DNA from: Patescibacteria group bacterium
GTDB lineage: Bacteria; Patescibacteriota; Patescibacteriia; Buchananbacterales; SURF-54
Direction of reading: 5' to 3'
Length of the DNA: 64,000 nucleotides
NCBI GenBank assembly: GCA_018818885.1
Contig: JAHIRB010000007.1
Coordinates: forward strand, 121,089-185,088
The position numbers were made by a program, and so were the translations under genes. Positions 18,208 to 55,490 of the stretch are shown piece after piece. The notes under the pieces are model-generated. The model had not been told where the DNA came from. It saw only the letters and a program-made list of their open reading frames with translations, and searched no databases. How positions within the stretch are numbered: the stretch's first letter is position 1; each line of letters begins with the position of its first letter.

Positions 18208-18320
18208 ATGATAAAAATATATCTAAATTTAGTTATTTTATAGATTAAATTAACATTTTTTATTTGACAGCACCTGATTAATAAGCTATATTTCTATTTA
18301 GATGCTATCATTCATAGTAT

Positions 18321-35899: not shown

Positions 35900-36284
35900 T
35901 CGCCGAAGGCTCTCCTCGCTCGACGCCAGCCTCGACGTCTAGCCGGGAAAGTTAAAGCGGGCGTCATCGCCGAGGCAGGCTAAATAACTAAATAAACTAA
36001 AATGACATCTTGTATGTTGTTTTTTGTTTGACTAAATGAATGTGAAGTTTTAAACTAATAATAAGCTGCTTTTATTGTCTTGCTTGATCTGCTTGTCTTA
36101 CAGGCAAGACCGGTCATCTGTGAACGGATGGCTGAATAAACGTAGGCGCTTGAGATGGCCTCGTATGTTTCCAGTTGATTGAAACCACTTAGTAAGCGCG
36201 TTAAACAACGAACGCACTCACAGAGCAGCCCGGGGGGAAACACATTCCCCCCATTTTTTTTGACCTTTAACAAGGAGGCAATCA
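35900..36284 (+). ncRNA. Candidate retron non-coding RNA (msr/msd) region
   Basis: 385 bp with no ORF on the plus strand, GC-richer than the genome, several stem-loops (CGACGCC/GGCGTC; GTCTT-acaggc-AAGAC; GGGGGGAA-acaca-TTCCCCCC plus T-run). Sits directly 5' of a retron-type RT on the same strand. Boundaries and a1/a2 repeats not resolved. Confidence 0.35.
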
Positions 36285-37316
36285 ATGCAGAAAAGCCGAA
36301 AGGATGCAGTGGAAATTCTAGCAAATCTTATGAGATTGCAATCAGATTTTATTTTTGATGCATTGAAAAATAGAAACTATCAACAAATTTTGATTCCTAA
36401 AAGATCTGGCGATGTAAGAAAATTGCACGCACCCGGTGAAGAGTTAAAACTTGTACAGGAAGTAATCCTACAATTTCTTTACCGATGGAAAGTCGATGCA
36501 CGTCAGTTTGGTTTCGTGTTAGGCGGTTCACCAATCAGGAATGCAAAATATCACATTAGAAATGAATTTTACGTTCCGCACTGGGTTCTAAAGCTTGATT
36601 TGGAAAACGCGTTTCCATCAGTTACTTCAACTGTTCTTAGGAAGGAGTACACCCGAGTATTTAACCCAGAAACATTCAAGGAGCTATCAGGAATAGACGA
36701 AAAACAATTTACTGCATTCATCCAACTGATGCTTGATTTAACAACTTACCGAGAGCGACTACCTCAAGGGTCGCCTTGTTCTCCCTACTTGTTGAATTTG
36801 GTATTAGTCTGGACAGGTGTAACAAAAGGTGTTTTGGAGTATTGTGAAAAAAAAGGACTACGTGCTTCCTTGTATGGTGATGATTTCACTATATCTGCCA
36901 AAACAAGTAACATGTGGTTTTCTAAGACATTCTTTAGAAAAATCAATTCAGCGGTTTCACGTAGTGGGTGTCTCAGACTAAATCACGACAAGACTCATCT
37001 AATATGCAGCAGAAACTCCGCGCCAATAATTACTGGCGTAAAAATTACCGAAAGCCACGACAATGGAGCAAAATTAACTCTCACCCAGAGCACACTAAAT
37101 CATTGGAGAGGAGTGATTCATCGAGTTACAGAAATTCTCTACTGGAATAATCGCCTACCAAGGCTGGAACAAGACGGCGTAACATTCAACCAAGCACTCG
37201 GTTATGTCAATTGGATTGAAGATGTCTATAGAGAAAGTGAGGTTCCGCTATCGGTTAGAAAACCAATTAAAAGTTTTAAAGTGCAATCATCAAGATTCGA
37301 TCGTAGGAGAGGTTAG
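36285..37316 (+). CDS. Retron-type reverse transcriptase
   Basis: RT motifs ILIPKRSGDVRKLHAP (1), LDLENAF (2), LPQGSPCSPYLLNLVL (QGxxxSP), LYGDDFTI (YxDD), LNHDKTHL. Retron hallmarks FGFVLGGSPIRNAKYH (NAxxH) and IITGVKI (xTG). AAGGAGG RBS at 36271-36277. No maturase or endonuclease domain. Confidence 0.8.
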   Translation: MQKSRKDAVEILANLMRLQSDFIFDALKNRNYQQILIPKRSGDVRKLHAPGEELKLVQEVILQFLYRWKVDARQFGFVLGGSPIRNAKYHIRNEFYVPHWVLKLDLENAFPSVTSTVLRKEYTRVFNPETFKELSGIDEKQFTAFIQLMLDLTTYRERLPQGSPCSPYLLNLVLVWTGVTKGVLEYCEKKGLRASLYGDDFTISAKTSNMWFSKTFFRKINSAVSRSGCLRLNHDKTHLICSRNSAPIITGVKITESHDNGAKLTLTQSTLNHWRGVIHRVTEILYWNNRLPRLEQDGVTFNQALGYVNWIEDVYRESEVPLSVRKPIKSFKVQSSRFDRRRG

Positions 37317-38733: not shown

Positions 38734-38876
38734 TTGTCAAAAAATTATTCTTGACTTAGTATTATACTATACGTTACAAAACTTGTCAATGATTTTGACA
38801 TAATAATTCAGTAATTATGCTTAAATTAGAGCAAAATAATTACATACTAAAAAAATGTTGTCAAAATACTTGACAA
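38734..38876 (+). promoter_or_regulatory. trmB promoter region with three TTGTCAA-N5/10-TTGACA(A) palindromic operator-like sites
   Basis: Sites at 38734-38756, 38783-38800 and 38858-38876 (the last is a perfect TTGTCAA-aatac-TTGACAA). The last TTGACA also serves as the -35 box: 17-nt spacer, TATAAT at about 38892-38897, ATG at 38907, so the mRNA is near-leaderless. Confidence 0.4.
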
Positions 38877-38906
38877 AATTTCTCAGATGATATATAATAA
38901 ATATGT

Positions 38907-44437: not shown

Positions 44438-44899
44438 TTATAACAAAAACTCGTCTTTCTTCAAAAGGTATTGATGGGTTTTCTTAAGTAAGTCCTGTTG
44501 CTCTTGATAGTAACCACGCTTTAGAGATGTCTCGTAGTCGAACCAGCCCCAATCAAGATGTTCTTTAGAAATACTAATTTTTTCTTTTTCAGTTTGTGCT
44601 AGATAGTAGACAGAAACATTATAAATTTTTTTCTTTATACCATCTTCAATTTCTACATCAAAATCATATTCAATTTCTTCTCTAAAATCACGTATAAAAA
44701 AAATGTCATTTTTCTTCAATCCAGTCTCTTCTTCTAATTCCCTTAAAGCTGTTAGCATTTCATCTCCTTCTTCGCCCGGATCAACTCGTCCAGATGGCGA
44801 TTTCCAATAAACACCTTCTTGATGCCGGAGTAAAAGATATTTTATATTTCTACCTTTTTTTCTAAATATAATTATTCCTACGTCTTTTTGTTTGATCAT
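44438..44899 (-). CDS. NUDIX hydrolase
   Basis: Nudix box GRVDPGEEGDEMLTALRELEEETGL. Confidence 0.8.
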   Translation of the reverse strand: MIKQKDVGIIIFRKKGRNIKYLLLRHQEGVYWKSPSGRVDPGEEGDEMLTALRELEEETGLKKNDIFFIRDFREEIEYDFDVEIEDGIKKKIYNVSVYYLAQTEKEKISISKEHLDWGWFDYETSLKRGYYQEQQDLLKKTHQYLLKKDEFLL

Positions 44900-44930
44900 A
44901 CAACTATCATTTTAGCTTATTTTGTAGAAT

Positions 44931-44959
44931 TTGACAAAGGCTAATTTTAATTCTAATAT
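44931..44959 (+). promoter_or_regulatory. Candidate sigma70-type promoter facing a GC-rich structured region
   Basis: TTGACA 44931-44936, 17-nt spacer, TAATAT 44954-44959. Confidence 0.4.
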
Positions 44960-44984
44960 AATTAAATTAGAACCTTGATATCAC

Positions 44985-45245
44985 CGATAAATTCTCGAGG
45001 CTAATCTTATATTGGTTATGAGATGATGGGGCAGGTTTAAGTCGCGCGGGAGACTTGCCTGTCCTGCCTCGAGAAAATTTTTTGACCGCCGGTTGCAGGG
45101 TCGTATCTGCATCAATGTATGCAGCATCGATTCTATTTACCACCACCTTCTGGCGGTCTTTTTTTACATTAAAACAAGAGCCGAGGCATCTTGCCTCGGC
45201 TCTTGTAATATTTGGTGAGGCAAGATGCCTCACTATGATGCATGA
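44985..45245 (+). ncRNA. Candidate small structured RNA / attenuator-like element (GC-rich island)
   Basis: GC-rich in an AT-rich genome. Competing pairings: TCTCGAGGC (44993-45001) with GCCTCGAGA (45066-45074), versus GGCAGG (45030-45035) with CCTGCC (45063-45068) plus a T-run. Second stem GACCGCC/GGCGGTC plus T7. Two perfect palindromic hairpins at 45176-45206 and 45222-45240. No convincing ORF. Confidence 0.3.
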
Positions 45246-45250
45246 TTGAT

Positions 45251-46108
45251 TTATTTAAATTCTTCTAGAAATTCTGAAATATCACCTGACGTTACACCTT
45301 GTTCTACAAGTGACTTATCTTTTATTTGAGGTAATTGTGATTCATAACTTGATTGATCTCCTACATACAATACGCCGATAGGAATTTTTTCTCCCCACTC
45401 ACCTGCTTTAATTAACGCAGCATCTTTATCTTTTGTATTCCAATTTTCATCTTCTAATTTGTATATACGTTCTTTGTACCATTGAAAAGTATTTACTTTA
45501 TTCCAAGTAATGCATGGCTGTAACACATCAACTAAAGAAAATCCTTTGTGTTCTATTGCTTGCTTAAATATTTCTTTACAATGTTTGATATCACCGGCAA
45601 AAGTTCTGGCAACAAAACTAGCACCTTGAGGGATAGCTACTTGTAATGGATGGAATGGCTGTTCAAGCTGGCCTGAAGGCGTAGTTTTTGTTTCCATACC
45701 TGTATCTGTTGTTGGTGATGCTTGGCCAGTTGTTAAGCCGTATATCTGATTATTATGTATAAGCAAAGTGATATCAAAATTCATTCTACAACCATGCAAA
45801 AAATGGTTACCACCTTCACCATAACCTCCGCCATCACCAGAAGCTGCAATTACTTTTAAATTGTGATTTGCCATTTTAATAGCCTCTGCAACAGGAACAG
45901 TTCTACCATGCAAGCTATGAAAACCATATAAATTATGCCAGTTAACTCCATTACCACAACAACCAATATCAAAAACCATTGCTATTTGGTGTGGTTCTAA
46001 ACCTAGTTCTGAAAGTGATTCCTTAAAACCTTGCCACAAACCAAAATTACCACAACCAGGACACCAGGTTGGAGTTACGTGAGTATTGAAGTCTTGTGGT
46101 TTAGCCAT
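45251..46108 (-). CDS. porB: 2-oxoacid:ferredoxin oxidoreductase beta subunit (TPP-binding; pyruvate/2-ketoisovalerate type)
   Basis: WCPGCGNFG N-terminal motif and TPP-binding GDGG region. Confidence 0.85.
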   Translation of the reverse strand: MAKPQDFNTHVTPTWCPGCGNFGLWQGFKESLSELGLEPHQIAMVFDIGCCGNGVNWHNLYGFHSLHGRTVPVAEAIKMANHNLKVIAASGDGGGYGEGGNHFLHGCRMNFDITLLIHNNQIYGLTTGQASPTTDTGMETKTTPSGQLEQPFHPLQVAIPQGASFVARTFAGDIKHCKEIFKQAIEHKGFSLVDVLQPCITWNKVNTFQWYKERIYKLEDENWNTKDKDAALIKAGEWGEKIPIGVLYVGDQSSYESQLPQIKDKSLVEQGVTSGDISEFLEEFK

Positions 46109-55329: not shown

Positions 55330-55490
55330 GCATTCATTAATAATATACTATATCAAAAATAATATGTTTTGTCAAGCTTTTTTAAAATTATACGAATATA
55401 TATCTAAAAACCGTCAAATTTCATATATAAATTAAATATACCAAAAAAAACCGCCTTTCAACTCACAAGACGGTTTTTTAAGTTAATATT

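Follow-up and report, generated by a model that had tools for sequence, protein, structure and literature searches.

A Candidate Structured Noncoding RNA Gene between a NUDIX Hydrolase Gene and the porAB Operon of an Uncultured Patescibacteria Bacterium

The DNA analyzed here (the window, 64 kb in length) belongs to an uncultured Patescibacteria (CPR) bacterium and has a GC content of 0.33. Between a NUDIX hydrolase gene and porB, the last gene of a 2-oxoacid:ferredoxin oxidoreductase pair (porAB operon), there is a gap of 351 nt with a structured region whose GC content rises to 0.46 (positions 44990 to 45166), compared to values of mostly 0.16 to 0.35 in the other intergenic regions of the window. 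What is this region? The initial annotation had called it unusually GC rich and strongly structured, which our measurements bear out, and had proposed either a stand-alone small RNA (sRNA) or attenuator or an elaborate terminator block for the por operon. We have examined its transcription signals, its predicted fold and its relatives to decide which of these readings, or which other one, fits best.

Transcription signals around the structured region

The features that flank the region, or are predicted to drive transcription into it, are as follows.

44438-44899, minus strand: NUDIX hydrolase gene, with its ATG at 44899
44909-44937, minus strand: divergent NUDIX promoter (-35 TTGTCA 44937-32, 17 nt, -10 TAAAAT 44914-09)
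44931-44959, plus strand: promoter of the candidate RNA, sigma-70 type (-35 TTGACA 44931-36, 17-nt spacer, -10 TAATAT 44954-59)
45167-45206, minus strand: terminator of the porAB operon (perfect 15-bp hairpin 45206-45174, then TTTTAAT)
45215-45233, no strand assigned: 8-bp hairpin GTGAGGCA-AGA-TGCCTCAC, adjoining the porB stop codon
45251-46108, minus strand: porB

The TTGACA-17-TAATAT promoter at 44931-44959 was found exactly as first described, and from the position of its -10 box the candidate RNA is predicted to start at about 44966 (an A). The strict pattern TTGACA-N16-18-TANNNT occurs 11 times in the window against 3.8 expected, a number that no shuffle reaches, and at least five of the 11 copies are located directly upstream of genes (7107, 35399, 38789, 38870, and 55375). 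It is therefore the promoter type that this organism uses, and the predicted promoter of the candidate RNA has the same sequence pattern. A loose version of the consensus showed no enrichment (8 found and 5.8 expected). Intrinsic terminators are also enriched in the window (23 versus 10.4 expected). On the opposite strand, the NUDIX promoter ends 10 nt before the ATG, which leaves a very short leader, and its -35 box overlaps that of the plus-strand promoter at five of six positions, so that the RNA unit and the NUDIX gene would be physically coupled through overlapping divergent promoters and would probably compete for polymerase.

Some other features of transcription and translation in the window emerged from the same analysis. 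Perfect or near-perfect TTGACA-17-TATAAT promoters end 9 to 18 nt before start codons (for example, 38761-38898 and 55347-55375), and only 6 of the 66 open reading frames (ORFs) carry a Shine-Dalgarno (SD)-like motif, so that leaderless or SD-less initiation seems to be the prevailing route to translation in this organism. One further strict promoter (TTGACA-17-TATATT, 18264-18292, plus strand) lies in a 157-nt AT-rich gap and points away from both flanking minus-strand genes; it could belong to a second orphan transcription unit.

Downstream from the structured region, the window holds no plus-strand gene, in agreement with the initial annotation; the next gene, porB, is convergent and ends at 45251 on the minus strand. 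Since por has its own terminator and NUDIX its own promoter, the structured block is neither the por terminator nor the NUDIX leader. Read on the plus strand, the por terminator palindrome has only a poor T-tail, and the U7 end of the candidate RNA (see below) stands back-to-back with it. The small hairpin beside the porB stop codon contains 15 nt (45217-45231) that are exactly reverse complementary to the tip of the por terminator hairpin (45183-45197), and the GAGGC/GCCTC core recurs in helix P1 of the candidate RNA. This small hairpin looks like a local inverted duplication with no clear function, and the pattern hints at an origin of the local hairpins by duplication.

Predicted fold of the candidate RNA

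To find the most stable folds, 3192 sliding windows of 170 nt, covering both strands of the 64 kb, were folded. The top four all fall within 45041-45250, and the best reaches -74.3 kcal/mol, compared to a mean of -27.9 (standard deviation of 8.3). For the plus strand from 44965 to 45170, the fold energy is -73.2 kcal/mol (z = -4.85, with dinucleotide shuffles as the reference), and domains 1 and 2 alone give z = -7.0. About three-quarters of the bases are predicted to be paired. No second copy of the region was found elsewhere in the window, and three other contigs of the same organism are identical over it, leaving no variation to compare. The predicted parts, all on the plus strand, are the following.

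44966-44991: 5' tail, A/U rich, 25 nt (unpaired in the minimum-energy fold and by unpaired probabilities)
44992-45075: domain 1, Y-shaped three-way junction of 84 nt (predicted fold, z = -6.9)
44992-45001 with 45066-45075: P1, the 10-bp closing helix of domain 1 (TTCTCGAGGC/GCCTCGAGAA; pair probabilities of 0.7 to 1.0)
45004-11 with 45017-24: hairpin a of domain 1 (predicted fold)
45028-36 with 45057-65, plus 45039-43 with 45052-56: hairpin b of domain 1 (predicted fold)
45076-45083: linker of AA and U6 (read from the sequence; T6 at 45078-83)
45084-45165: domain 2, three-helix hairpin (75 nt, 45084-45158; predicted fold) and U7 (45159-65)
45084-92 with 45150-58: outer helix of domain 2 (includes GACCGCC 45084-90 and GGCGGTC 45152-58)
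45097-103 with 45128-34: middle helix of domain 2 (predicted fold)
45107-12 with 45119-24: inner helix of domain 2 (predicted fold)

The pairing of TCTCGAGGC (44993-45001) with GCCTCGAGA (45066-45074) that had been proposed at the outset is indeed predicted, as part of a helix that is really 10 bp long (P1). It had also been proposed that this pairing and a GGCAGG...CCTGCC hairpin were mutually exclusive, and this did not hold: P1 encloses the GGGGCAGG hairpin within the three-way junction, so that P1 and hairpin b are nested and not in competition. The GGCAGG/CCTGCC register (45030-35 with 45063-68) has a probability of about zero, and forcing it costs +9.8 kcal/mol. The second stem, GACCGCC with GGCGGTC followed by T7, lies where it had first been placed. 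In domain 2, a strand of 15 nt on the 3' side, AUUUACCACCACCUU, is predicted to be unpaired.

Domain 2 has the makeup of an intrinsic terminator on the plus strand, with the outer helix GACCGCCGG/CUGGCGGUC followed by U7, and is the predicted terminator of a full-length RNA of about 200 nt. Domain 1 with its AAU6 resembles an intrinsic terminator only in part, with two A residues between the helix and the U-run; this linker may be a first, weak terminator giving a short form of about 118 nt. Regarding the strand, the fold energy of domain 1 is -43.1 kcal/mol for the plus strand versus -29.3 for the minus strand, and G-U pairs make up 7 of the 56; read from the opposite strand, these turn into A-C mismatches. 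Both U-runs are plus-strand features as well, the minus-strand sequence after the two domains being AAAAAATTTTC and TTTATCGG. The G-U pairs and the U-runs thus favor the plus strand. The proposed terminator block for the por operon is not supported, as the U-runs of the domains exist on the plus strand only and por is served by the 15-bp hairpin at 45206-45174.

Database searches and related loci

A scan against Rfam 15, as suggested in the initial annotation, gave zero gathering-level matches over the whole window. At E <= 10, only subthreshold matches appeared in the region (the best with 34 bits, where the gathering score is 60), and these fall on the por terminator palindromes or, in two cases, extend partly into domain 2. 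ARAGORN detected neither a tRNA nor a transfer-messenger RNA (tmRNA), no paralogue turned up in the window with covariance models built from the single sequences of the two domains, and two exact-match scans of viral contigs gave no match to the region. Nor did we find a credible ORF, as had been stated before. Neither the 88-aa ORF (44967-45233, minus strand) nor the 64-aa ORF (45055-45249, plus strand) matches an NCBIfam family; among 1.84 billion representatives the former has a single marginal match (E = 2.3e-4), to a repetitive protein of 1588 aa that is matched in eight stretches.

Targets were sought by pairing the 5' tail, internal loop and linker with 66 start regions in this 64 kb of the genome; in duplex energy, none surpassed shuffled seeds. 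The CCACCACCUUCU loop was considered as an anti-Shine-Dalgarno mimic and discarded, given the scarcity of SD-like motifs and duplexes no better than those of shuffles.

Two further structured stretches of the window deserve mention in their own right. One is another GC-rich intergenic island (57259-57490), in which 170-nt folds reach around -61 kcal/mol; it contains runs rich in C as well as the hairpin GTCCTCCCCCTTCGTAAGGGGGAGGGAC, and Rfam gave no match there. The other (35900-37316) includes a 343-aa reverse transcriptase (36285-37316, plus strand) recognized by retron-type models (PADLOC RT_II-A at 1.3e-36 and RT_Ec107-like at 5e-29). Upstream from it there are about 360 nt of structured, ORF-poor sequence with a GC content of 0.45 and no Rfam match, which end in GGGGGGAAACACATTCCCCCC and T8; the ribosome-binding site AAGGAGG comes next. 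Gene and upstream stretch together are probably a retron and its msr/msd RNA.

To look for relatives, PorB-anchored scans of genomes and metagenomes were used to collect 160 loci, among which neither blastn nor nhmmer found a homologue of the region. The closest PorB relatives, L086, L166, L167, and L168 (79, 78, 77, and 73% identity), have other content after porB, with no homologue by blastn, nhmmer or covariance model. Among the NUDIX relatives, L169 and L174/L175 are without the unit, and L172 probably is too. A gene of the MgsA type lies directly upstream of NUDIX in L168, L169, and L174/L175, and no remnant of MgsA or of the other genes that occupy the interval in relatives was found in the region. 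In L168 (8610-9037), three genes lie between porB and NUDIX: one for a protein of 292 aa, one for an MgsA-type AAA protein and, on the opposite strand, a tRNA gene recognized by eye. They mark the interval as a rearrangement hot spot in this clade.

A single relative lineage has a comparable unit. It is represented by locus L170, whose NUDIX protein is 73% identical to that of the window, and by L171, an identical copy. At the same position and in the same orientation relative to NUDIX, L170 has a structured stretch of about 320 nt, with a GC content of 0.52 versus 0.42 for its contig, whose fold reaches -128.6 kcal/mol (z = -3.7) and for which Rfam gave no match. The block that begins at the NUDIX start codon and extends through TTTGACAAA (TTGACAAA) is about 85% identical between the window and L170. 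The promoter is TTGACA-17-TAGTAT in L170 and TAATAT replaces TAGTAT in the window, the hexamers and the 17-nt spacing being kept and the spacer diverged.

Neither nhmmer nor blastn found significant similarity between the two RNAs themselves, and the L170 RNA as a query found nothing in all 1.1 Mb of loci. A semiglobal alignment of the two gave z = 3.85, a score matched by 1 of 500 dinucleotide shuffles and higher than that of the reverse-complement control, with collinear matches that include TGATGGG(A)GCA, TTTAAG(T/C)CG, TTTT(G/C)ACCGCCGG, ATGTA(C)TGCAG, and CC(T)C(T/C)GGCGG(T)CTTTTTTT. Over the 3' 190 nt, RNAalifold recovered the closing helix of the multibranch domain (P1) in both, with 9 of 9 pairs kept and 4 changed on both sides, a covariation that comes from only two sequences and from a structure predicted from the same two. 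RNAalifold also recovered the outer helix of the terminal hairpin; in L170 this helix and its U-run (TTTTCACCGCCGGG...CCCGGCGGCTTTTTTT) resemble those of domain 2. The covariance model of domain 2 scored 15.3 bits in L170 on the outer helix and U-run only, a terminator-level score comparable to that of its match on an unrelated terminator of the window (59233-59280), and that of domain 1 gave no significant match there. A tblastx comparison with the L170 region found no common peptide. The L170 unit has about 170 extra nt at its 5' end. The linker after its multibranch domain, AUUCAAUUUU, is A/U rich and not terminator-like, which suggests the full-length two-domain RNA, and not the short form, as the conserved product.

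About 110 nt after the U7 of L170, on the same strand, there is a gene for a 142-aa protein that corresponds to the C-terminal domain of RapZ (RapZ_C, PF22740), the part of RapZ that binds sRNAs such as GlmZ. The protein had no database homologues besides itself. A link between the RNA and this gene was considered and rejected, as no RapZ_C gene was found in the window and as the identical RapZ_C gene of L179 follows unrelated upstream sequence. Since L170 also has a promoter-like site between U7 and the RapZ_C gene, the adjacency there looks incidental. Stand-alone proteins of about 145 aa made up of this domain alone are encoded near porB or NUDIX in L170 (1718-2146) and L167 (3730-4167 and 4846-5289).

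Likely nature of the region and its alternatives

As a whole, the evidence points to an independent plus-strand gene for a structured noncoding RNA of about 200 nt, of an undescribed family and with its own promoter and terminator, a reading to which we give a little more than an even chance. Of the readings considered in the initial annotation, the stand-alone sRNA thus fares best, the unit being structured, free of ORFs and driven by a predicted promoter. We infer the production of this RNA, its exact ends and its function from the DNA. RNA polymerase would start at about 44966 from TTGACA-17-TAATAT, and the transcript would fold into a free 5' tail of 25 nt, the 84-nt three-way junction, the A/U linker and the 75-nt three-helix hairpin. 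The U7 after domain 2 would stop transcription just before the oppositely oriented por terminator, although some transcripts may end earlier, at the U6 linker. We have a weak preference for a protein-binding or scaffold-type stable RNA over a classical base-pairing sRNA, because of the high proportion of paired bases, the few SD sites of the organism and the lack of a target in our search. A more specific proposal, which we regard as unlikely, is a Patescibacteria-specific class of structured RNA tied functionally to the divergent NUDIX hydrolase through the overlapping bidirectional promoter; the RNA might be a substrate, regulator or partner of a 5'-end-modifying or decapping NUDIX enzyme, or its transcription might set NUDIX expression by promoter competition.

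The main rival, improbable on balance, is that the RNA itself serves no function. In that case, the plus-strand promoter would be a by-product or regulatory partner of the NUDIX promoter, with which its -35 box overlaps, and the region would act as an insulator, its tandem terminators stopping antisense transcription into por. Two hairpin and U-run units in series, abutting the por terminator, are what such an arrangement would look like; most relatives do without the element, and by covariance model the similarity to L170 is limited to the terminator-like outer helix. Yet a simple terminator needs about 30 nt and not 170 nt with an 84-nt three-way junction, and the unit of L170 is even longer (about 320 nt). 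The closing helix of the junction is kept there by compensatory changes, and strand-biased G-U pairing runs through the interior helices. We find it harder to accept that the region lacks a present function and is a scar of genome rearrangement, or a remnant of foreign DNA of higher GC content, at a recombination hot spot. The interval between porB and NUDIX does differ in every relative examined (two genes and a tRNA in L168, MgsA beside NUDIX in L169 and L174, and other genes in L166 and L167), and the hairpin at 45215-33, which inverts part of the por terminator, and the recurrence of GAGGC/GCCTC suggest local duplications. Against a scar, the region has no similarity to neighboring genes of the relatives, to the rest of the window or to viral contigs, its fold is extreme and strand specific, and promoter and unit are kept in L170.

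A cis-regulatory leader, that is, a riboswitch or attenuator switching between terminator and antiterminator folds, had been part of the initial proposal and now appears very unlikely. A promoter followed by structured RNA with U-runs would suit it, as would the same-strand RapZ_C gene some 110 nt after the U7 of L170, but the window offers no downstream plus-strand gene to regulate, the pairings are nested and the alternative one has practically zero probability at its cost of +9.8 kcal/mol. Besides, there is no Rfam aptamer or riboswitch match even at E <= 10, the linker of L170 is no terminator, and the RapZ_C gene has unrelated upstream sequence in L179 and a promoter-like site before it in L170. 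Least credible of all is a small protein encoded by the 88-aa minus-strand or the 64-aa plus-strand ORF. Both frames exist, but both cross the 15-bp hairpin of the por terminator, they have no NCBIfam match (the marginal match of the 88-aa ORF being to a repetitive protein), no peptide is conserved with L170, and the 88-aa ORF lacks a ribosome-binding site in front of its GTG.

Compared to known systems, the candidate RNA gene shares with stand-alone bacterial sRNA genes (e.g., the Hfq-independent ones of low-GC bacteria) a sigma-70 promoter, an intrinsic terminator formed by a 3' hairpin and U-run, a length of approximately 100 to 200 nt, the absence of an ORF and an intergenic position between unrelated genes. 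It differs from them in belonging to no Rfam 15 family and in its host, a member of the Patescibacteria with few Shine-Dalgarno sites, and from typical base-pairing sRNAs in being far more base paired, with no seed-target complementarity found within the window. Riboswitch and attenuator leaders have a similar promoter, multihelix fold and hairpin with U-run, but here the regulated downstream gene, the competing folds and a known aptamer are missing. GlmZ-type sRNAs, which act with the adaptor RapZ, are alike in their size (about 200 nt), several stem-loops and single-stranded A/U linker, as well as in the RapZ C-terminal domain neighbor of L170; with no sequence or Rfam match to GlmZ/GlmY, no RapZ_C in the window and the adjacency broken in L179, this likeness is a lead only. 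In AT-rich genomes, long intergenic regions of high GC content are recognized to be enriched for structured noncoding RNAs (PMC8723152, PMC6429828, PMC8632094), and the candidate resembles the GC-IGR/DIMPL candidates (PMC6429828, PMC8632094, PMC8723152, PMC11109978) in being a GC-rich, long, structured intergenic region of an AT-rich genome, precisely what such pipelines are designed to pick out. However, those motifs rest on covariation across many representatives, whereas the candidate RNA is found in two lineages only and a motif is not yet definable.

A limited literature search found no papers on noncoding RNAs of Patescibacteria/CPR bacteria. A bacterial sRNA gene is a well-known kind of element, but the family of this candidate is new and its host group is almost unexplored for RNAs. 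If the region were only a terminator or an insulator, it would be ordinary. The genomes of Patescibacteria/CPR bacteria are tiny, and the organisms cannot be cultured by themselves. The candidate RNA gene stands out clearly, and with its positional relative and its conserved overlapping promoter it offers metatranscriptome mining something definite to look for. With more genomes at hand, it could grow into a new RNA family.
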